DNA from: Pyrodictium delaneyi
Lineage (GTDB): Archaea; Thermoproteota; Thermoprotei_A; Sulfolobales; Pyrodictiaceae
Length of the DNA stretch: 32,000 nucleotides
NCBI RefSeq assembly: GCF_001412615.1
Contig: NZ_CP013011.1
Coordinates: 870,001-902,000, forward strand
Direction of reading: 5' to 3'
In this document: positions 6,662 through 27,531 of the stretch, one piece after another
Layout of the letters: every line of letters starts with the position of its first letter
Position numbering within the stretch: position 1 is the first letter of the stretch
The notes under the pieces: generated by a model
What the model saw: the letters and a program-made list of their open reading frames with translations, nothing else
Told to the model about the DNA's origin: nothing
The model's database searches: none
Made by a program: the position numbers and the translations under genes

Positions 6662-8068
6662 TTAGCCTGGGCTGCATGCCTCTCTGCTCAGCCGCTCGTA
6701 GTCCTCCAGGGTGATTATGTGCTCGTCTGGTAGTGTTGCTGGCTCTCCTTCAAGCTCGCGTACTGCTAGCAGGTAGATGGTCTCAGAGGGCTTGACCGGT
6801 AGATGCTGGGCTTTCGCCCGCAGCTTGTCTAGTTCGCGGCGTGCCTCCACGGCTGTTAGGGCTGCCCACTTTGCCTCGGCTACGAGTAGCCGTGGCGGCT
6901 CTAGGGTCTCGTCTAGTGCTACCAGGTCTATCTCCATGCCACGGTGCCACCAGGGGCCCATGCGGGTCGGGGTTACCCCTAGCTCGCCGTTCTGCGCCAT
7001 CCGCCCGACTATCGCTGCTAGGGTTTCCTCCCACACGCCGGGCATCACGTTGGCCTCGAAGTCCCTCCGGACAGCTTCTACGACCTTCTTAGAGAGGCCT
7101 AGCTCTATTGCAGAGCGGTGGCGGGGTATGTAGCGGAACCAGAAAGCCAGGAACCGGTCTGCGACCCGGTAGCGGGCCCTACCCCTCCCAAGTATGGGAG
7201 CGACGCGCTCCACTAGGCCCATCTCCTCTAGGACTCGGAGGTACTTGGAGAGGCTCTCCGCGGGGACGCCACTCCGCGAGGCTATCTCGCCATAGCTCGT
7301 CGCGCCGCCCGCTATGGCTTCTAGTACCGCGTAGTACCGGGTCACCTCGCGTAGCTCCTCCCGGAGCAAGTACCTGGCCTCGTCGAGGAACCGGGCGTTG
7401 GGCCTCAGCATGAGTCTCTCGACGTTCTCCCAGAGATTCTCGCTGGGGTCTACCTCGGCTAGGTAGCCGGGGACGCCGCCTACTACGCCGTAGAGGCGGA
7501 GAGAGTCGCCTGGGCTCCAGCCCGGGGTGAAGCACCTAGCCTCCAGGGGGCCGAGAGGCTGGAGCCTCATCACACCAGTCAGCCGGCCGTAGAGGGGGCT
7601 ACGCTGCGAAAGCACGCCCTCACTGAAGGAGACGAGACTACCCATAAGAAGGATAAACACCCTCGTCCCCGATAGCCTGGTATCCCAGACGGCTTGTAGC
7701 GTAGAGAGGAGCCCAGGGCTAGCCGCGGCCGCGTACTGGAACTCATCGATGACAAACCCTATTCTCTCCTTCTCGGCGAGACGGGCCAGGTAGAGGAGCA
7801 CTTGCCTCCAGCTGGTAAACGGCCTCTCCTCGAGTAGCTCGTCCCCCGTGAACTCTGCTAGCTCCAGGCTAAGCTTCTCTAGGAGCCTCTGCTCTGGCAC
7901 CTCCTCCGCCACGAAGTAGAAGACCCGACGCCCCTTCATCCACTCCCATACAAGCCGGGTCTTCCCAACCCGGCGGCGCCCATAGACCAGCAGTAGCTCG
8001 GCACGGCCGCTTCTCCAGTGCTCCTCGAGCCAGCCCAGCTCCCGCCTACGGTCAACAAACAGCGCCAC
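6662..8068 (-). CDS. Archaeal ATPase (Arch_ATPase/AAA) fused to a wHTH and a DUF234 PD-(D/E)xK-like C-terminal domain
   Basis: 468 aa with a GTG start. Walker A is GRRRVGKT and Walker B is GFVIDEFQY. The central segment YAVLEAIAGGATSYGEIA...YLRVLEEMGLV looks like a winged helix. The C-terminal MEIDLVALDE...LLVAEAKW fits a D...E-x-K nuclease-like motif typical of DUF234. Confidence 0.9.
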   Translation of the reverse strand: MALFVDRRRELGWLEEHWRSGRAELLLVYGRRRVGKTRLVWEWMKGRRVFYFVAEEVPEQRLLEKLSLELAEFTGDELLEERPFTSWRQVLLYLARLAEKERIGFVIDEFQYAAAASPGLLSTLQAVWDTRLSGTRVFILLMGSLVSFSEGVLSQRSPLYGRLTGVMRLQPLGPLEARCFTPGWSPGDSLRLYGVVGGVPGYLAEVDPSENLWENVERLMLRPNARFLDEARYLLREELREVTRYYAVLEAIAGGATSYGEIASRSGVPAESLSKYLRVLEEMGLVERVAPILGRGRARYRVADRFLAFWFRYIPRHRSAIELGLSKKVVEAVRRDFEANVMPGVWEETLAAIVGRMAQNGELGVTPTRMGPWWHRGMEIDLVALDETLEPPRLLVAEAKWAALTAVEARRELDKLRAKAQHLPVKPSETIYLLAVRELEGEPATLPDEHIITLEDYERLSREACSPG

Positions 8069-8082
8069 TGGTACCAGACCCT

Positions 8083-8125
8083 AGAGTACAGACTCTGGAG
8101 TCTCAGACTCTAAAGTCTGTACTCT
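8083..8125. promoter_or_regulatory. 43-bp near-perfect palindrome (candidate operator or RNA hairpin) upstream of the DUF234 ATPase gene
   Basis: AGAGTACAGACTCTGGAGTCTCAGACTCTAAAGTCTGTACTCT. Checked by hand, 19 of 21 positions are complementary around the centre at 8104, and the outer arms are a perfect 12 bp. It starts 15 nt upstream of the GTG at 8068. On the minus strand it contains a TTTAGA TATA-like element. Confidence 0.6.
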
Positions 8126-15157: not shown

Positions 15158-16096
15158 TTAGCCTGCCTTGAGTTGTTCGCGTATCTGCTGTATCTCGTTG
15201 GCATCCATTGGTATCATCTTCTCTATGTCGCTAAACTTTAGGCCCATGACCTCTATGTCCTTGTTCTCCTTGAGGATCTCGCCTAGCTTGTAGGCCTCCT
15301 CCCAGATCCAGTCTGGTATCTGCTCCCTCATCGCCTTGACCTTCTCGTATATCTCCTGCTTCTGCTCAGGCTTGATGCTGCCGGCCTCGACTGCTATCTC
15401 TAGGAAGGTCTCTAGGTCCTCTAGCTTGCTTAGGCCTACGCCGCCCTCCTTGAGGCCTAGCTCCATTATGCCGCCGTACTTGTCTATCTTGCCCTCGTAG
15501 TAGGCTAGGGCCCTCTCAACGGCCTTGTAGACGCCTACGTCTACGCGCTTCATCATGCTGGCTAGTATGAAGCCTGGCTTAATCCAGTCCTGGTCCGCGT
15601 CAACGCCTATGGCGAATGGCGGGCCCATGTCGCGGCCCTGCTTCTTAGCAGCCTCTGCTACTGCCTCGAAGATGCCTAGGCCGGTGGCGCCGGCCACGTT
15701 GTAGACTACGCAGGCGCCCTGGCCTAGCTGGGCTTCAGTCGCAGTCTTACCGCGGGCCGGGTCGTTGAAGGCACCAGTGTAGGTGTATAGTATCCTTAGG
15801 GGCTCGACCTTCTTACCCTCGTGCTGCTCGAATATCTTCTCACCGTAGCGTATGCCCCAGTAGTAGCCTGCCTCGAACTTGTAGAGTACCGGTATCTCCA
15901 TACCCAGGACTACGCCTACTGCTTTGCAGCCGTAGTAGTGGGCCACCATGCCGGCTAGGGCGCCAGCTAGTGCGCTGCCCTCGTGCTCCTTGAAGAGCAC
16001 GCTTAGCACGTTAGGCTTGTCGGGTATGTAGCCGTCTATTATGGCGAAGAGCTGGTCAGGGTACTCGTCGGCCACCTGCTTAACCGCGTCAGTCAT
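15158..16096 (-). CDS. BMP-family ABC transporter substrate-binding protein, C-terminal fragment (frameshifted gene)
   Basis: 312 aa. MTDAVKQVADEYPDQLFAIIDG...AFNDPARGK...VGVDADQD is the core of the Bmp/PnrA-like fold. It overlaps the N-terminal fragment by 8 nt in another frame. Confidence 0.85.
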   Translation of the reverse strand: MTDAVKQVADEYPDQLFAIIDGYIPDKPNVLSVLFKEHEGSALAGALAGMVAHYYGCKAVGVVLGMEIPVLYKFEAGYYWGIRYGEKIFEQHEGKKVEPLRILYTYTGAFNDPARGKTATEAQLGQGACVVYNVAGATGLGIFEAVAEAAKKQGRDMGPPFAIGVDADQDWIKPGFILASMMKRVDVGVYKAVERALAYYEGKIDKYGGIMELGLKEGGVGLSKLEDLETFLEIAVEAGSIKPEQKQEIYEKVKAMREQIPDWIWEEAYKLGEILKENKDIEVMGLKFSDIEKMIPMDANEIQQIREQLKAG

Positions 16097-16505
16097 CAGT
16101 GAAACCTACCGCCACTATTACGGCACACTTGCCGTCCTTGGCTAGGGTGCGTAGGTTGGGGAGGTAGTCGCTCTCGCTAGTGCTCTGAACCTCCACGACC
16201 TCTAGGCCGAAGTCCTTGGAGGCCTTGCTCGCGCCGAGGTAGGCCATGTCGTTGAAGCTTAGGTCGCCACGGCCACCAACGTCGTAGACGACACAGATCT
16301 TGTTGCGCTCAAGCTTCTGCCCGGCCGGCGCAGTTGTGGTAGTTGCTGTGGCCTCCTTTGCTGGTGTTGCTGTTGTCTCCGGCGTAGTAGCGGTCTTCTC
16401 AGCCACGGGTGCAGCTTGCTCGCCGCCACGCATTAGGGTGAAAGCTGCGACACCCGCTATGATTACGAGGATTGCTACTGCTGCGAGGAGTGTTCTAGTC
16501 TCCAC
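16089..16505 (-). CDS. BMP-family substrate-binding protein, N-terminal fragment (TM anchor, Thr-rich linker, start of BMP domain)
   Basis: 138 aa. It has the TM helix LLAAVAILVIIAGVAAFTL and the linker TATTPETTATPAKEATATTTTAP. ICVVYDVGGRGDLSFND then begins the BMP domain. The frame ends VAVGFTDD*, where homologues continue GF-LMTDA. Confidence 0.8.
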   Translation of the reverse strand: METRTLLAAVAILVIIAGVAAFTLMRGGEQAAPVAEKTATTPETTATPAKEATATTTTAPAGQKLERNKICVVYDVGGRGDLSFNDMAYLGASKASKDFGLEVVEVQSTSESDYLPNLRTLAKDGKCAVIVAVGFTDD

Positions 16506-21903: not shown

Positions 21904-23271
21904 TCACTGCTGGAGCCATGTTTGGGGTTCGCCTTCCCGCCTCCATCCACCGGCTAGGATTAGGCGGAGGGCCTCAGCCTCGTCTATGCCCTGGTGCTCG
22001 GCTACCGCCTTCGCCAGCTTTCTGTACCACCAGGGGTGCAAGTGGTACGCGATGTGTATCTCGTAGAGGTGCATTGCCGGGCAGGCTATGCAGCCTATCC
22101 TCGTGAGACCGTAGTGGTATAACTGGCTGAGGGGGATCCCGCGCTCAGCGAGGTATAGCTGGACTACTAGCCGGGGCCAGTGGTGTATCGGCAGCGCCCG
22201 TGCCACGCCGGGTATGAGGGGGTTCTGGCCGAGCCTCGGCGTCCGGGCCCGGTTTGTGCTCTCCCAGCGCCGGGCTCCGTCGAGGACGAGCTTTGCGCCG
22301 ACGCGGCTGTAGAAGCGGCGGAGAGGTTGGAGCTTGAGTAGCCGGGTGCACCAGCGGTCGTCCCGGGTCATGAGCCCGCGCTTCGCGACCTCCTCTAGGG
22401 GGTCCACGTCGGGCTCTACTACCTCGAGGTCCACGCCTAGTATTGAGGCTATCCGCTCGGCGTGCCTCCTAGCCTCGGGGTACTCCATACCGGTGTCGGC
22501 GTAGACTGCCACGATCCTCTCCGGGCCAAGGGCCTCCCGGGCCAGGCTGAGCACAGCCGTGGAGTCCGCGCCGCCGCTGAAGGCGACGTAGACCCGGCCT
22601 TGGCTCGCCTGTACCCGGGCGTAGGCGCGGCGGATGAACTCCCGGGCCTCGGAGGCAAGGCCGCCCACTATCTCCGCGTTGCGCTCCACTGCTGCGTCTA
22701 GCTCGGCTGGCGGGAGGGGCTTGAGCCCCTGGGGCGCCATGTCCTTGACCTTGACTGTGCACTCCTCCCCGTCTGCTTCGACTACGCGGGCTGGCCCGAC
22801 CCAGCCTCGCGAACCGACTATGACCCAGCGGCGGCCCAGGCAGCTCTCCGGGCTGAGTCGGATCTTCTTCCCCTTTAGCCTGGGCCCGGGGCCGCGGGCC
22901 TCCACGACCCCGGCGCCTAGGCTTGCTGCTAGGCTGGCTAGGGCCCCGCTTGGGTGGAGCACCCATCCCCGCCGGCTATACTCGACCACGCCTAGCCGGA
23001 GGGCTTCCGCGAAGACCTCGGCTGCGTACTCGCCGCTCGGCGCTGGTACTCGGTGGAATACGACTAGCTTATCCCGGAGCCCCGGGTCAGCACCGAAGGC
23101 TAGTCTAGCCAGTGTGTCTAGGAGGCGGCGCTCGTAGCGGCCTGCTAGCCAGTAGTCTCCCCGGACCCGCCAGCACACTTTGCCGGAGCCCCGGCAGCCT
23201 AGCACAGGGACGCTTGGGTCGCGGAGCCAGCCGAGCCTCTCCAGCGCCTCTAGCAGCCCCTGCAGCGCCAT
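21904..23271 (-). CDS. PP-loop ATP pyrophosphatase of the PAPS-reductase family with an uncharacterised ~215-aa N-terminal extension
   Basis: 455 aa. The PP-loop VYVAFSGGADS has SGGADS encoded at 22561-22578 (checked by hand). DDRWCTRLLK, LDGARRWES and C-terminal GCIACP are also present. I recognise no motif in residues 1-215. Confidence 0.8.
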   Translation of the reverse strand: MALQGLLEALERLGWLRDPSVPVLGCRGSGKVCWRVRGDYWLAGRYERRLLDTLARLAFGADPGLRDKLVVFHRVPAPSGEYAAEVFAEALRLGVVEYSRRGWVLHPSGALASLAASLGAGVVEARGPGPRLKGKKIRLSPESCLGRRWVIVGSRGWVGPARVVEADGEECTVKVKDMAPQGLKPLPPAELDAAVERNAEIVGGLASEAREFIRRAYARVQASQGRVYVAFSGGADSTAVLSLAREALGPERIVAVYADTGMEYPEARRHAERIASILGVDLEVVEPDVDPLEEVAKRGLMTRDDRWCTRLLKLQPLRRFYSRVGAKLVLDGARRWESTNRARTPRLGQNPLIPGVARALPIHHWPRLVVQLYLAERGIPLSQLYHYGLTRIGCIACPAMHLYEIHIAYHLHPWWYRKLAKAVAEHQGIDEAEALRLILAGGWRREGEPQTWLQQ

Positions 23272-23303: not shown

Positions 23304-24560
23304 CTACTGCTCCGGGCCCGTTGATAGCAGCTTCTCTACCGCCTCCTCTAGGGCATGGTCGGGTAGACGGCCCTTAGCCTCGACAGTCGCGGCTACGTTG
23401 AAGCCGCAGCCACCGAGCTTCTCGGCTATCTTACGTGCTGCTACTCCTCCCCACGCGTAGGACGACACAACGAGGACACGTTGCCCCGCTGAGGCCTTAC
23501 TGCAGAGCAAGCCCAGCACATAATCCATCAGCGGGAATACGTGGGCCTCGTAGGTGGCGGCGCCAACTACCAGATATCCCGCGTCGAGAGCCTCGCCTAT
23601 CACGTCTGCTATACTAGCCCTCTCAGCGTCTGTGAACCTATAGACCGACACTTCTAGACCCCGTGCCTCCAGCATACCAGCTATACGCTCCATAGCCTCC
23701 TCCACAGCACCGTACATACTTGAATAGACTACCACCGCCCGGCTTCGATCAAGCCGTCCCTGGGCCCAGCCCTTGTAGAGCTCTATAGCTTCCTGTACAT
23801 GCTTCTCTATAACCATACCGTGCAGGGGTGCCAACATCTTGGGCTCTAGTCCTGCAAGCTTATCCAGTGCCTTTGTCACCCAGCTCCTATATGCACCAAT
23901 GATTGTTGCAAAGTATTTCCTCATGAAATAGATGTAGTATTTGAAGACTTCTGGGTTCCCACTATCCACTAGTACGCCGGGCACTGAGTAGGCACCAAAC
24001 GCATCCCCCGTGAAGAGGATCTGCTCGGGCTCCAGTAGGCTCATCATAGTCTCGGGCCAATGGAGCCACGCCGTCTGAATGAAGACCAGCTTTGTGTCGC
24101 CACCGAGGCTTAGCTCTAGGCCGTCCTTTACCGGTTTGAACCTCTCGATGCGGAGCCCGTAGAGGCCCTCAAGCATACCCTTAGCCAGGGGATGCGCGTA
24201 GACCGTGGCACGGCTCGCATGGCCTAGAACCCTTGGGAGTGCACCACTGTGGTCGGGTTCAGCATGCTGAACTACTATGGCGTCGATATCTCTGGGGTCT
24301 ACTATGCGGCGCAGCGCGGAGAGGAAGATGCCCTCGAACCCCTTCTTCACGGTATCAATGAGCACTATGCGCTCTGGCCCGGTAACGATGTAGGCGTTGT
24401 AGGTTACGCCTTCCGGTATCTCCCAGAGGGCCTCGAAGAATCTTATCCTCTCGTCATCTACACGGATCAAATAGACGCTAGGGGATATCTTCTCAACACG
24501 TACACGAGGACCTGTATGAAACACCTCGTGCCCTCTGTGAATGCCGTCATGTCCGCACAA
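23304..24560 (-). CDS. fprA: Flavodiiron protein (FprA-type: metallo-beta-lactamase plus flavodoxin domains)
   Basis: 418 aa. The diiron site is VVQHAEPDHSGAL. The fold also shows TAWLHWPETM, FTGDAFG and the C-terminal flavodoxin-like AVVVYSSMYG...YLVVGAATYE. The start is uncertain (TTG at 24560 or GTG at 24524). Confidence 0.9.
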   Translation of the reverse strand: MCGHDGIHRGHEVFHTGPRVRVEKISPSVYLIRVDDERIRFFEALWEIPEGVTYNAYIVTGPERIVLIDTVKKGFEGIFLSALRRIVDPRDIDAIVVQHAEPDHSGALPRVLGHASRATVYAHPLAKGMLEGLYGLRIERFKPVKDGLELSLGGDTKLVFIQTAWLHWPETMMSLLEPEQILFTGDAFGAYSVPGVLVDSGNPEVFKYYIYFMRKYFATIIGAYRSWVTKALDKLAGLEPKMLAPLHGMVIEKHVQEAIELYKGWAQGRLDRSRAVVVYSSMYGAVEEAMERIAGMLEARGLEVSVYRFTDAERASIADVIGEALDAGYLVVGAATYEAHVFPLMDYVLGLLCSKASAGQRVLVVSSYAWGGVAARKIAEKLGGCGFNVAATVEAKGRLPDHALEEAVEKLLSTGPEQ

Positions 24561-24624
24561 GGTGTAGACTCCTCCGCCACGTGTATAGCCGTGACAAGCC
24601 TAGCATTATATCTTGGCGTCTGCC

Positions 24625-24630
24625 TTTAAT
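24625..24630 (+). promoter_or_regulatory. TATA-like box (TTTAAT) upstream of the HerA-like gene
   Basis: TTTAAT lies 25-30 nt upstream of the GTG at 24655. This spacing is consistent with a leaderless or near-leaderless archaeal transcript. Confidence 0.3.
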
Positions 24631-24654
24631 CTGTGAACCAGGGTTGAGATACTG

Positions 24655-26337
24655 GTGAAGGAGCAAACAAGGACGGATAACATCTTGGACACGATAGCTA
24701 TAGTGCTTAGTGGCTCCACGACTGATACCGTTAAGATGCAGCTCACAGTGGCGGGCGAGCGGGTAGCTCGCGAGGGCCTCCTAGTGCTCGTGGAGGCTCG
24801 CCGTGGCGAGGAGAAGGTGATAGCCCGGATAGAGAGGATAGTCCCTGTCAACGAGTTCTATCTGGAAGGCGACCTCTGGAGTGAGGCGCGGCGCCGCGGC
24901 CTAGAGCCTCCGCTTCTCGAGGAAGCGGCACGCCGTTACACCCTCGCTGAGGCTGCTGTTCTAGGCCGGGCCGGGCCCCGCGGCCTCGAAGAGCTGAGTG
25001 CACCACCGCTTCCCGGTGACCGCGTGAGGCTCCTGGGCCCTGGCGAGCTACGTGAGGCCCTAGGCCTCTCGGAGGACGAGCCCGGGATAGTCTGGTTTGG
25101 AGAGCTACTGGGCTACCAGGGGCTCGGGCTCCCTCTCGACGTGGAGAACATTACTATGCACGTAGGGGTGTTCGGAGAGACTGGCAGCGGGAAGAGCTAC
25201 GGCGTCGGCTACCTCCTCGAGCTCCTATCGCGCATCCCCCTAGGCGACGGGGCTTACGGCGCACTGCCAGCCATAGTTGTGGATGCTAACGGCGACTACC
25301 TGGACTACTACGAGGCCTACGCCTCCGGCAAGCAGGTGGGCGAGTACCGCCGGGTCTACCGGCTAGTCTTCCCTAGTAGTCCTGCCCGGTACCGGCCCTA
25401 CACCAAGCCCGTAACGATAGACCTGGACGGGTTCACAGCCCGCGAGATAGCAGAGTTCATCATAACCTACAAGGCTGGAGGTGTGGAGCTCAACGAGCTC
25501 CAGGTCTCGGGCCTGGAGCGGGTCCTCCGGGAGCTAGAGGCCATGGGCTATGGATTTACCGAGCTGCTCACGGAGAGGATAAGCCTCGTCTACGACATGC
25601 TCGACGAGCTTAGCCGAGGCCGCAGCGCCGCGATACACGCGCAGACCGCCCGGGCTATCCGCGCAGCGCTAGAGAAGTTCCACCGGGACATAGTGGAGGG
25701 CTACCGCGTCATATCCCGGAAGCCGGGCCTCGACACGGGCTTCATCGAGGAACTTACCCGGGAGCCGGGGCTAGCTATACTGGACTTCTCAGCGGAGGGC
25801 GCGCCAGGGGTACCACTCCCGGTCCGCCAGCTAGTAGTGGCGTACCTGGCCCGGCTCCTCTACAAGCAGTTCACCCTCTACAAGATAAGGGGCGAGGAGC
25901 GCTACCTGGTGCTGGTGCTCGAAGAGGCGCAGAACTACGCGCCGAACCCCCGGAGCTACCCGGTAGCCTGGAGCCTTGCAAGGGACTACCTCTCCCTGAT
26001 AGCGACGCAGGGCCGGAAGTTCGGCCTCAGCCTCGTCCTGGTGAGCCAGAGACCCATCTTCGTGGACCCCGTTGTACTCTCCATGCTCAACACGTGGATA
26101 ATATACAGGCTCCCCGTAGAGGACGTGGGCTACGTCTCGCGGGCTAGCGGCGGGCTTCCCAAGACGCTGGAGCGGAGGCTCACCAAGCTCCCACGCGGCG
26201 TAGCCGTAGTCACCGGGCAGATGAACGTGCTAGGCTTCCCAGTGCTGGTTAGAACCGGGAGGAGGAGCGTAGGCCACGCTATGGGCCGCACCCGGGTAGT
26301 CGAGACACTGCGCCGCCTCTACAGCACGGGAGGCTGA
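24655..26337 (+). CDS. herA: HerA-like (DUF87, FtsK/HerA superfamily) hexameric ATPase/translocase
   Basis: 560 aa. The N-terminal barrel-like segment is IAIVLSGSTTDTVKMQL...GLLVLVEARRGEEKVIARIERIV. Walker A is GETGSGKS (25174-25197) and Walker B is LVLVLEEA (25906-25929). GRKFGLSLVLVSQRP is also present. Confidence 0.85.
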   Translation: MKEQTRTDNILDTIAIVLSGSTTDTVKMQLTVAGERVAREGLLVLVEARRGEEKVIARIERIVPVNEFYLEGDLWSEARRRGLEPPLLEEAARRYTLAEAAVLGRAGPRGLEELSAPPLPGDRVRLLGPGELREALGLSEDEPGIVWFGELLGYQGLGLPLDVENITMHVGVFGETGSGKSYGVGYLLELLSRIPLGDGAYGALPAIVVDANGDYLDYYEAYASGKQVGEYRRVYRLVFPSSPARYRPYTKPVTIDLDGFTAREIAEFIITYKAGGVELNELQVSGLERVLRELEAMGYGFTELLTERISLVYDMLDELSRGRSAAIHAQTARAIRAALEKFHRDIVEGYRVISRKPGLDTGFIEELTREPGLAILDFSAEGAPGVPLPVRQLVVAYLARLLYKQFTLYKIRGEERYLVLVLEEAQNYAPNPRSYPVAWSLARDYLSLIATQGRKFGLSLVLVSQRPIFVDPVVLSMLNTWIIYRLPVEDVGYVSRASGGLPKTLERRLTKLPRGVAVVTGQMNVLGFPVLVRTGRRSVGHAMGRTRVVETLRRLYSTGG

Positions 26338-26349
26338 GGGCCGGGGGCC

Positions 26350-27531
26350 GTGGAGGAGGGCGATAAGCTGCCAGAACCGCTCGAGCGTAAAATGCGAGAG
26401 ATGCTAGACGTACAGCAGAGCGAGCCAGAGCTAGTAATGAGGATCATCGAGCAGGCGTCGAGGCGTCGGAGGCAGCGGGAGGCCCTATACAGCGTGCTCC
26501 GCCGGCTCGGCCCGCTAGTCTACGATGAGATGCAGAGGCGTGGACTGCTCCACCCTGTACCGCAGCCCCTCTCCGGCGAGACCAGCTACGGCGTCGACGG
26601 CTCCCGGCAGGTGGTTGGGGGCCGGCTCGGCCGCTACTACATCTTCCTCTCCACTACCCTGGTGACTCTGCCCCGGGGGCTGAGGAGTACTAGGATCAAC
26701 ATAGTTTTCCCGGGCGTGGACATAATAGAGGTCGTGGACCCCACGGGGGCTAGCATCGAAGCCGCCGCGGAGGCCGCTATGATGGTTCTGGAGACGCTGA
26801 CGCTCCGCAAGCTAGCAAATGTCGAGCCGGGGCTAGTCTTCATAGACGGGCCTATCGTGGACCCACCAGCCCGGCTCGACCCCAGCAACTCGGTGCAGGC
26901 AGTGAGGGAGCTCCTCAACGCGCCAGCCGAGGAGGCACTACGGATTGTAGAGGAGTACCACCGGCTACGGGCTAGGACTCTAGCAGAGCTTGTGGAGCAT
27001 GGACACACGGTGGTAGGGCTTGTTAAGAGAATCGGCCAGGTATCCATGCTCTCCTCACATCTAGCGAAGATAGGCATCAGTATTGACGGCTATATGGGTG
27101 ACGAGGACCTAGTGTTAGCCCTTACCGCTACCGCGAAGAGTAGAGGAAGTGGTGTGTTCTACACCGAGCCAATAGAGGCCACAAGTCTGCCTCAGGACGT
27201 CTACCGGGAGTACCGGGTCGCAGGGCTACGCGTCTATGCTAGCTACACGTTCTCCCGGTACACGCTCCGACCCTACCGCATCGAAGTAGCCGTGGACCAA
27301 GGTGCAGATCCAGGCGAGGTTATAAAGAGGGTAGTTGCGGCTGCTCACGGACTTACCGTGCCTGGCCAGAGCTACCCACTGCCGGTGGTGCTCGCGCACG
27401 AGAAGTCCAGGATACGCCGTGGGCTGGCCCAGCTAGTCTACCGGGAGGTGTTGACTCGCGCCTCGCTGCCCGAGGGCGACCCGCTAGCCGACACTTTGAA
27501 GGCCCTCCTGGTCAAGCTGGATGAGTCCTAG
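26350..27531 (+). CDS. nurA: NurA-like 5'-3' nuclease
   Basis: 393 aa, starting 12 nt after the HerA-like stop. The NurA catalytic pattern is present: YGVDGSRQ (Asp codon at 26596-26598), MMVLETL, VFIDGPIVDP and C-terminal PLPVVLAHEKS. Confidence 0.8.
   Translation: MEEGDKLPEPLERKMREMLDVQQSEPELVMRIIEQASRRRRQREALYSVLRRLGPLVYDEMQRRGLLHPVPQPLSGETSYGVDGSRQVVGGRLGRYYIFLSTTLVTLPRGLRSTRINIVFPGVDIIEVVDPTGASIEAAAEAAMMVLETLTLRKLANVEPGLVFIDGPIVDPPARLDPSNSVQAVRELLNAPAEEALRIVEEYHRLRARTLAELVEHGHTVVGLVKRIGQVSMLSSHLAKIGISIDGYMGDEDLVLALTATAKSRGSGVFYTEPIEATSLPQDVYREYRVAGLRVYASYTFSRYTLRPYRIEVAVDQGADPGEVIKRVVAAAHGLTVPGQSYPLPVVLAHEKSRIRRGLAQLVYREVLTRASLPEGDPLADTLKALLVKLDES

Follow-up and report, generated by a model that had tools for sequence, protein, structure and literature searches.

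A HerA-like ATPase and a NurA-like nuclease of Pyrodictium delaneyi as a predicted non-canonical pair with relatives in a candidate archaeal restriction module

The HerA-NurA complex is the textbook machine of archaeal DNA end resection. Here we describe a HerA-like ATPase gene and a NurA-like nuclease gene, Pyrde_0893 and Pyrde_0894, in a stretch of 32,000 nucleotides of the Pyrodictium delaneyi genome (contig NZ_CP013011.1, positions 870,001 to 902,000; hereafter the window), and compare them with the closest described systems. Crenarchaea can possess three or more nurA-herA pairs, one of which alone is the repair pair (Bernick et al. 2012, PMC3396285). Among the paralogous pairs of Thermoproteales are CRISPR-linked nurA-csm6-herA genes (PMC3396285; PMC3973734); the Pyrobaculum nurA-herA pair PAE2154/2155 is unexplained. 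The canonical complex itself has been argued to degrade both DNA strands and may be antiviral (PMC12977600). HerA together with an Orc/Cdc6-type AAA+ protein, winged-helix domains, a nuclease and sometimes a TGT-family transglycosylase constitutes the proposed 'capture' defence systems (PMC10853773, PMC12839542). In TdpABC of thermophiles, a PP-loop modifier is combined with a HerA-like translocase-nuclease (PMC12914056; PDB 8WET). Modification by tdpABC needs TdpC alone, and the PP-loop protein BrxP is known from experiment to phosphorothioate DNA (PMC12914056). Finally, viral DpdA and ArcS2, the latter having the DUF5591 core discussed below, put preQ0 into DNA and convert it to deoxyarchaeosine (PMC10516641).

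Pyrde_0893 and Pyrde_0894 are co-oriented and separated by 12 nt, as stated in the original prediction, and this arrangement suggests co-transcription. The region upstream of Pyrde_0893, which is common to a divergently oriented flavodiiron gene, contains the TATA-like boxes TTATAT (~24606) and TTTAAT (~24626) located 27-45 nt before the GTG codon and is likely to be the promoter of a two-gene operon (Table 1).

Table 1. Coordinates of the gene pair, its flanking features and representative loci of its relatives.
Feature	Position	Strand	Remarks
HerA-like ATPase gene Pyrde_0893	24655..26337	+	560 aa, GTG start; open reading frame (ORF) call, Pfam DUF87
NurA-like nuclease gene Pyrde_0894	26350..27531	+	393 aa, GTG start; ORF call, Pfam NurA
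Upstream intergenic region, common to divergent flavodiiron gene	24561..24654	+	A/T-rich TATA-like boxes; putative promoter
PP-loop/PAPS-reductase-domain protein, BrxP/SspD/DndC type	21904..23271	-	455 aa; Pfam PAPS_reduct 117 bits
Five-gene module, example loci	L034:3585-12464, L033:1420-10306, L055:6880-15554, L037:6863-15692, L032:6856-15851		
Sulfolobales variant of the module	L061:6478-14455, L066:6374-14411, L063:593-7025		

Membership of Pyrde_0893 in the HerA superfamily was evident from the Pfam DUF87/HerA central domain (PF01935), which scored 77.2 bits against a cut-off of 23.2. The protein contains a Walker A motif GETGSGKS (174-181), a Walker B motif LVLVLEE(A) with E423/E424 and an arginine-finger segment, QGRKFG...SQRP, with R454 and R466, and its translation includes GRKFGLSLVLVSQRP as quoted earlier. 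In a multi-phylum alignment of 14 ATPase sequences, G174-S181, E423/E424, R454 and R466 were invariant. The Pfam HAS-barrel profile did not match Pyrde_0893; the AlphaFold2 (AF2) model of the protein (predicted local distance difference test, pLDDT, 85.9) displayed an N-terminal HAS-like beta-barrel followed by a RecA-like core. The full HerA architecture of barrel, RecA-like core and helical insert was recognized by Foldseek, whose alignments of the model to 9X1M, 4D2I and 7WRX spanned 550-650 columns with template modelling (TM) scores of 0.6-0.74. The best structural matches were the HerA proteins of T. kodakarensis (9X1M; E 3e-29) and Sulfolobus (4D2I; TM 0.74), next to which came Deinococcus and anti-phage HerAs. 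Motifs, Pfam domain and model thus agree with the HerA/FtsK P-loop and the N-terminal barrel that had been read from the letters alone.

Pyrde_0894 is predicted to be a highly diverged NurA-type nuclease with an active-looking catalytic site. The Pfam NurA profile (PF09376) was covered from position 3 to 254 of 254 with 33.0 bits (cut-off 21), so that both family assignments lay above their thresholds. The active-site residues are D83 (GVDGS), E148 (LETL), D166 (FIDGP), K226 and H350 (LAHEKS). Since 53/53 family members share D83, E148, D166 and K226 and 46/53 have H350, the protein appears active despite its divergence, and the catalytic positions named in the original prediction are indeed kept. 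A pairwise search of Pyrde_0894 against solved proteins retrieved no match. A profile built from 30 sequences of the nuclease family gave weak matches solely to the archaeal NurAs 2YGK, 3TAI and 9X1L_G, and the nuclease motifs aligned with DG[GS] and AH in 2YGK and 3TAI. Consistent with this, Sulfolobus NurA 2YGK was the single significant PDB match of the AF2 nuclease model (pLDDT 77.9), with E 2.8e-5, probability 1.00, 315 aligned columns, 15% identity and modest TM scores of 0.41/0.49. The N-terminus carries a long helical extension (aa 9-63). Both proteins exceed their Sulfolobus counterparts in length, in agreement with the original prediction: the solved HerA and NurA chains comprise 500 and 339 aa compared to 560 and 393 aa. 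Between two Pyrodictium species the nuclease is 58% identical and the motor 87%, which corresponds to an about 2-fold faster evolution of the nuclease.

Several observations separate the two genes from the canonical repair lineage. All curated NCBIfam HerA equivalog models, i.e. those for Thermoproteota repair, euryarchaeal repair, anti-phage function and CedD, were missed by tenfold or more; Pyrde_0893 reached 66.7 bits against a threshold of 800 for NF040937 (HerA_Thermprot) and 59.2 against 970 for NF040819 (helicase_HerA). A second HerA of P. delaneyi, P0265 (ALL00884), is encoded on the same contig at a distance of ~67 kb and is 27% identical to Pyrde_0893. It stands alone and is not part of a herA-mre11-rad50-nurA operon. 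A 715-aa HerA from the flank of a related metagenome-assembled genome (MAG) reached 227 and 179 bits against the repair models, and proteins of P. occultum, P. abyssi, Pyrofollis, Pyrolobus and Pyrobaculum belong to its family. In Pyrobaculum neutrophilum (L081) the P0265 lineage is found in a nurA-herA-Metallophos(Mre11)-SMC_N(Rad50) operon, which identifies it as the canonical repair lineage. Furthermore, Hyperthermus and Pyrolobus encode a separate NurA of ~440 aa that is orthologous to the NurA of the Pyrobaculum operon and has no pairwise similarity to Pyrde_0894. The proposal that Pyrde_0893/0894 are paralogues rather than the canonical repair complex therefore gained support from the equivalog scores, P0265 and the Pyrobaculum operon. 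That they might be the sole pair of the genome and cluster with canonical orthologues does not hold, because a second HerA lineage is present and that lineage is operonic with mre11-rad50 in Pyrobaculum. Taken together, sequence comparison shows Pyrde_0893/0894 to be a second, non-canonical HerA-NurA pair. The PGAP name of Pyrde_0894, 'DNA double-strand break repair nuclease NurA', which is also given to its orthologues, is probably a mis-transfer.

Genes for Mre11 or Rad50 were absent from the window, as had been noticed before: Pfam scans of all sizeable ORFs did not reveal any, and phmmer searches with Pyrobaculum Mre11, Rad50 and NurA returned zero matches. Neither a motif scan of 78 loci nor phmmer with the Pyrobaculum proteins revealed mre11 or rad50 hidden in the flanking regions, and linkage of the herA-like/nurA-like family to mre11-rad50 was seen in none of about 75 loci. 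However, contrary to what had been assumed, a herA gene without mre11 and rad50 beside it is not unusual in Pyrodictium: even the gene for the canonical HerA is an orphan there, and the genus normally has its repair genes dispersed.

The canonical-lineage HerA of Pyrodictiaceae showed some peculiarities of its own. It is unusually long (712-715 aa versus about 500-610 elsewhere), and a SWIM-type domain is flagged by UniProt in the P. occultum protein. The gene stands alone in P. delaneyi (L082:10001-12142), P. occultum and P. abyssi (L078 and L080), while it is paired with a gene for a 436-aa NurA in Pyrolobus (L079:8698-12139). In Hyperthermus butylicus, the canonical NurA gene (L003:5507-6841, minus strand) is located ~3 kb upstream of the herA-like/nurA-like pair on the opposite strand, with no HerA, Mre11 or Rad50 gene alongside.

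To describe the family of the pair, genes were called on 74 genome loci, from which family hidden Markov models (HMMs) were built; partnership was counted on the 53 loci with adequate flanks. Relatives of the ATPase occur in most archaeal phyla with 45-55% identity between phyla. Only 43 clusters among 1.84 billion representatives were retrieved at E<=1e-30. Full-length members scored above 270 bits and the next HerAs about 100-120 bits; with the family HMM, members reached 390-940 bits compared to about 92 for the other HerA lineage. By these scores the ATPase family appears small, discrete and mostly archaeal. Thermoproteales members were not recovered in the genome scan. A NurA-like gene adjoins the ATPase gene in 41/53 loci and lies within 4.5 kb in 45/53, and the nuclease HMM found partners in 55 loci. 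The adjacency in 41/53 loci provides indirect support for a predicted physical complex of NurA and HerA.

In a neighbour-joining tree, calculated without support values, the window's pair falls into a Desulfurococcales-specific clade with the gene order herA-nurA, beside a multi-phylum clade with the order nurA-herA followed by a gene for a giant protein. The branching of the latter clade does not track taxonomy, which is compatible with horizontal transfer. Some family members were found in bacterial MAGs. Modules of three to five genes lie on contigs binned as Crocinitomicaceae, Poribacteria, Bacteroidota, Calditrichaceae and Cyanobacteria (L019, L029, L031, L042, L071, L073), due either to horizontal transfer into bacteria or to mis-binning. 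At three loci, extra HerA-/NurA-type pairs of a different kind were located a few kb from the module (L041:3-2663 in Njordarchaeota; L056:13812-17157 and L015:14504-15763, both minus strand), which indicates that several HerA-NurA lineages can cluster together in one genome region.

Outside the Desulfurococcales, the herA-like/nurA-like pair is usually found within a five-gene module. Its further components are a gene for a ~1400-aa AAA+/coiled-coil protein, the giant protein mentioned above, an ArcTGT/DpdA-like transglycosylase gene (TGT) and an ArcS2-like DUF5591 gene. Outside the window's clade the giant gene was present at 36/37 loci, the TGT gene at 20/37 and the DUF5591 gene at 17/37, in several gene orders. 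The TGT and DUF5591 partners emerged from an unbiased clustering of neighbours. Bathyarchaeia, Korarchaeia, Thermoplasmata, Archaeoglobales and Hydrothermarchaeota are among the groups in which all five genes are co-oriented, and permuted orders occur elsewhere.

The giant protein measures 1000-1500 aa, and in nearly all loci that carry it outside the window's clade its gene lies directly 3' of the ATPase gene. It exhibits an N-terminal GEWGxGKT Walker A motif, a DE Walker B motif, hints of a winged helix and, at the C-terminus, a long coiled coil. It matched no family of Pfam, PADLOC or NCBIfam, and a PDB profile search returned generic P-loop and coiled-coil matches only. It can be described as an Orc/Cdc6-like AAA+/coiled-coil protein and a putative sensor-like ATPase. 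The TGT-like protein (~340 aa) consists of the ArcTGT catalytic domain only, with 125 bits to 1IQ8 and 46 bits to DpdA; its catalytic DSGG motif is kept and the zinc site mostly so. In the DUF5591 protein (~250 aa) the ArcS core motif was kept in 13/13 sequences. Because a TGT/DUF5591 pair modifies viral DNA and because HerA with an Orc/Cdc6-type AAA+ protein has precedents in the 'capture' systems, the composition of the module suggests a candidate modification-dependent restriction system of the 7-deazaguanine type. A description of this five-gene module was not found in the searchable literature.

The Sulfolobales variant has the order TGT-DUF5591-herA-like-1020aa-235aa-nurA-like. Its 3.7-kb spacer between herA-like and nurA-like was considered as a place for mre11-rad50, and this was rejected: the spacer encodes a P-loop protein of ~1020 aa and another protein of ~235 aa, and Pfam detected a phosphoesterase or SMC domain in neither. 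The two middle genes thus mimic the positions of mre11 and rad50 in the canonical operon.

Family HMMs and the tree identify the ATPase and nuclease of the window as orthologues of the module proteins. The giant gene is retained in early branches of the window's clade, where it lies divergently upstream in L005, L006 and L011 and some kb downstream in L010 and L017; it was seen in 5/16 loci of this clade. Since these branches carry the giant gene while the Pyrodictium group does not, and since TGT and DUF5591 are missing from the clade, the window's pair is best described as a putative reduced two-gene derivative in which motor and nuclease were retained. Some members of the clade have the ATPase only (L014, L016, L020, L059).

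A gene with a possible link to DNA modification is nevertheless located in the neighborhood. A PP-loop protein of the BrxP/SspD/DndC type is encoded 1.4 kb from the pair on the opposite strand and outside the operon, with the flavodiiron gene between them. It matched the PADLOC models for BrxP (BREX type 4) with 124.7 bits and SspD with 45 bits, and DndC was also matched. The protein possesses a C-terminal CxxC motif and an unexplained N-terminal region of 220 aa. With 80% identity to P. occultum, its gene is the second most conserved of the block. It occurs near the ATPase gene in five Pyrodictiaceae genomes including P. occultum, Hyperthermus and MAG L004, and in L014 it is located directly upstream of the ATPase gene in the same orientation. 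That the PP-loop protein serves as a self-marking partner of the HerA-NurA pair can be put forward as a hypothesis only.

Comparison with the described systems placed the pair closest to canonical HerA-NurA (Sulfolobus 4D2I/2YGK; T. kodakarensis 9X1L/9X1M), with which it shares the two folds, the adjoining genes, the catalytic residues and, probably, by analogy, the threading of DNA by a hexamer plus dimer; the closest structural and profile matches are also found there. In contrast to that system, the ATPase is as distant from the repair HerA of its own genome as stated above, the nuclease is undetectable in pairwise comparison with canonical NurAs, both proteins are longer than in Sulfolobus and their relatives in other phyla are linked to TGT, DUF5591 and the giant AAA+ protein. 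The Thermoproteales nurA-csm6-herA pairs differ by their csm6/CRISPR linkage, which the window's pair lacks. Like Dpd and viral DpdA plus ArcS2, which produce dPreQ0 and dG+ in phage DNA, the operons of the relatives combine a TGT-family transglycosylase with a DUF5591 protein. Unlike in Dpd, this transglycosylase is nearer to ArcTGT than to bacterial DpdA, the restriction side would consist of HerA-NurA and the giant AAA+ protein, homologues of DpdB, DpdC and DpdD-K were not noted, and the modification genes of these modules are not in the window.

HerA/FtsK capture and BREX-related capture (BRC) resemble the module in having a HerA-type translocase, a large winged-helix AAA+ protein, a nuclease effector and sometimes a TGT; however, NurA is not mentioned in those papers, and PglZ, DUF6079, DUF4007 and GNAT of BRC were not seen here. 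TdpABC (8WET/8WFD) is similarly a compact set of thermophiles with a HerA-fold translocase and a nuclease, and the window has a BrxP-like PP-loop gene nearby, but outside the operon. With 20.8 bits, TdpA was the weakest match among nine HerA chains, and TdpB did not match the nuclease-family profile at E<=1; orthology to TdpAB was rejected on these scores. In Sir2-HerA and DUF4297-HerA a HerA-fold hexamer (TM about 0.6) scaffolds an effector, which in the window would be NurA instead, and the corresponding anti-phage equivalogs NF042943/NF042944 were far from reached (67.6 bits versus 800 and 58.6 versus 850). CedD and Ced/Ted-type DNA import were rejected on a score of 46.9 bits against 600, the lack of membrane anchoring and the absence of ced/ted genes from the window.

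How might the pair act? By analogy with the solved HerA-NurA complexes, a hexameric ATPase ring would dock with its N-terminal barrel onto a nuclease dimer, and ATP would drive the threading of duplex DNA into the nuclease, where it would be degraded. The gene context of the relatives suggests that in the ancestral module the transglycosylase pair would put a 7-deazaguanine mark on host DNA, sensing or recruitment would fall to the giant ATPase, and HerA-NurA would destroy DNA without the mark. The Pyrodictium lineage would then have retained the motor-nuclease pair alone. Chances are about even, in our estimate, that foreign or unmarked DNA is the target of the pair, a variant resembling Tdp included; ATP-driven degradation of such DNA appears the most likely activity, ahead of canonical double-strand-break end resection. 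The arguments for a foreign-DNA role are circumstantial and comprise the company of modification enzymes, the branching of the tree, the fast-evolving nuclease, the BrxP-like neighbor and the antiviral argument made for the canonical complex (PMC12977600). A more specific scenario, a five-gene restriction family with an archaeosine-type mark in which Pyrodictiaceae swapped in a BrxP-like phosphorothioate modifier and thus arrived independently at a Tdp-like system, is put forward only tentatively. A number of findings weigh against a foreign-DNA role. TGT or DUF5591 genes were present in 0/16 loci of the window's clade; homologues of the giant protein, TGT and DUF5591 are absent from -24.6 kb to +10 kb around the P. 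delaneyi pair; and the group of Pyrodictium, Hyperthermus and L004 has no giant gene within the covered flanks. The locus lies in stable housekeeping synteny across Pyrodictium, Hyperthermus and the Pyrodictiaceae MAG L004, and neither integrase genes nor CRISPR arrays nor any further defence genes adjoin the pair. With 87% identity the ATPase gene is the most conserved of the block and exceeds even the lipid synthase, which is atypical of defence genes. Moreover, no PADLOC or NCBIfam anti-phage model was reached, the nuclease had no PADLOC match at all, and the family is near-absent from viral contigs, with four weak partial IMG/VR matches only. The linkage of PP-loop and ATPase genes rests on five related genomes and was unseen outside Pyrodictiaceae, and a metagenome scan starting from PAPS-reductase genes revealed no HerA-like or NurA-like neighbor at 80 loci. 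Of the defence or foreign-DNA proposal in the original prediction, the modification-enzyme module of the relatives and the nearby BrxP-like gene are in favor, while the lack of a modification gene in the operon, the housekeeping synteny and the missing defence models are not; a defence role at this locus is plausible by way of its relatives.

The stable synteny with metabolic genes that P. delaneyi, P. occultum, Hyperthermus and L004 have in common would be expected of a domesticated housekeeping paralogue, a second chromosomal DNA-processing machine that is vertically inherited with no modification or sensing partner and that might, for example, resect ends in an alternative way, process forks or degrade damaged DNA at >100 C. 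ATPase identity across Pyrodictiaceae tracks taxonomy (87 > 76 > 71 > 57%), some clade members consist of the ATPase only, the giant, TGT and DUF5591 genes are not at the locus, and the classical Sulfolobus HerA is the top sequence-profile match. We hold this explanation to be distinctly less probable than not: Pyrodictiaceae also keep canonical HerA and NurA, so that there is no obvious vacancy, the wider family is linked to modification enzymes and branches in a manner compatible with horizontal transfer, and the evolutionary rate of the nuclease is about twice that of the motor. A Tdp-like three-gene system, a functional analogue of TdpC plus TdpAB of thermophilic bacteria in which the PP-loop enzyme would phosphorothioate host DNA and the HerA-like/NurA-like complex would translocate on unmarked DNA and degrade it, draws on the BrxP and SspD scores, the known phosphorothioation by BrxP (PMC12914056), the HerA fold of TdpA and the conserved proximity of the PP-loop gene, co-oriented in L014. 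We consider it unlikely in view of the low TdpA score and the undetected TdpB, the position of the PP-loop gene on the other strand beyond the flavodiiron gene, the fact that 4/5 co-occurrences are plain synteny, the 80 metagenome loci and the lack of a BrxC/SspC-type partner ATPase among the genes seen. That the pair is simply the canonical repair HerA-NurA, dispersed and with mre11-rad50 elsewhere, is very improbable: the PGAP name of the nuclease and the dispersed repair genes of Pyrodictium would fit, but the genome contains a separate canonical HerA whose lineage is linked to mre11-rad50 in Pyrobaculum, Hyperthermus and Pyrolobus contain a separate canonical NurA, and the equivalog scores fall short more than tenfold. 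We assign the lowest probability of all to a CRISPR-associated accessory pair of the nurA-csm6-herA type known from Thermoproteales. Such paralogous pairs do exist in Crenarchaeota (PMC3396285; PMC3973734), but the window contains no CRISPR array, Pfam scans of it revealed no cas or csm6 gene, and the orthologous loci showed none either.

The genes adjoining the pair are a flavodiiron gene (ODP and flavodoxin domains) and a CDP-alcohol transferase gene, and Pfam and NCBIfam searches agreed with their initial naming; the transferase matched archaetidylinositol-phosphate synthase with 171 bits against a cut-off of 180. Because the lipid transferase, flavodiiron and hydantoinase neighbors are kept in the nearest Pyrodictiaceae only, they reflect plain synteny rather than function, and a functional tie to the CDP-alcohol transferase or the flavodiiron gene was rejected. 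Of the neighborhood whose conservation had been proposed as a check, the herA-like/nurA-like pairing extends through the family as counted above, but the CDP-alcohol transferase does not. The flavodiiron gene (23304-24560, minus strand) shares only 41% identity with the gene at the corresponding position in P. occultum versus 54% with that of Hyperthermus, which hints at non-orthologous replacement or rapid divergence inside the conserved block. Elsewhere in the window, positions 6662-8068 (minus strand) encode an archaeal ATPase_2 protein with DUF234 and a winged helix-turn-helix domain, which scored 133 bits with the PADLOC candidate defence model PDC-S27. Immediately upstream of its gene (8075-8117) a 15-nt palindromic unit, CAGACTCTAGAGTCA, is repeated in tandem and may be an operator. 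A Bmp/PnrA-type substrate-binding protein is represented by two overlapping ORFs (15158-16096 and 16089-16505, minus strand) and by a single gene (448 aa) in another assembly of P. delaneyi, due to either a frameshift or a sequencing difference.

Multiple crenarchaeal nurA-herA pairs were already described in 2012 (PMC3396285); the newer result is the five-gene context of the relatives, which lies outside the window. A 2026 structural study has already questioned whether HerA-NurA serves end resection or the destruction of foreign DNA. If the restriction reading is true, the family would provide a concrete and testable case of HerA-NurA as a restriction effector and an archaeal defence-system candidate that is missing from PADLOC-DB v2, Pfam and NCBIfam. 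To our knowledge, 7-deazaguanine modification of DNA has been reported for bacteria and viruses; the same reading, if true, would predict it in the DNA of cellular archaea.

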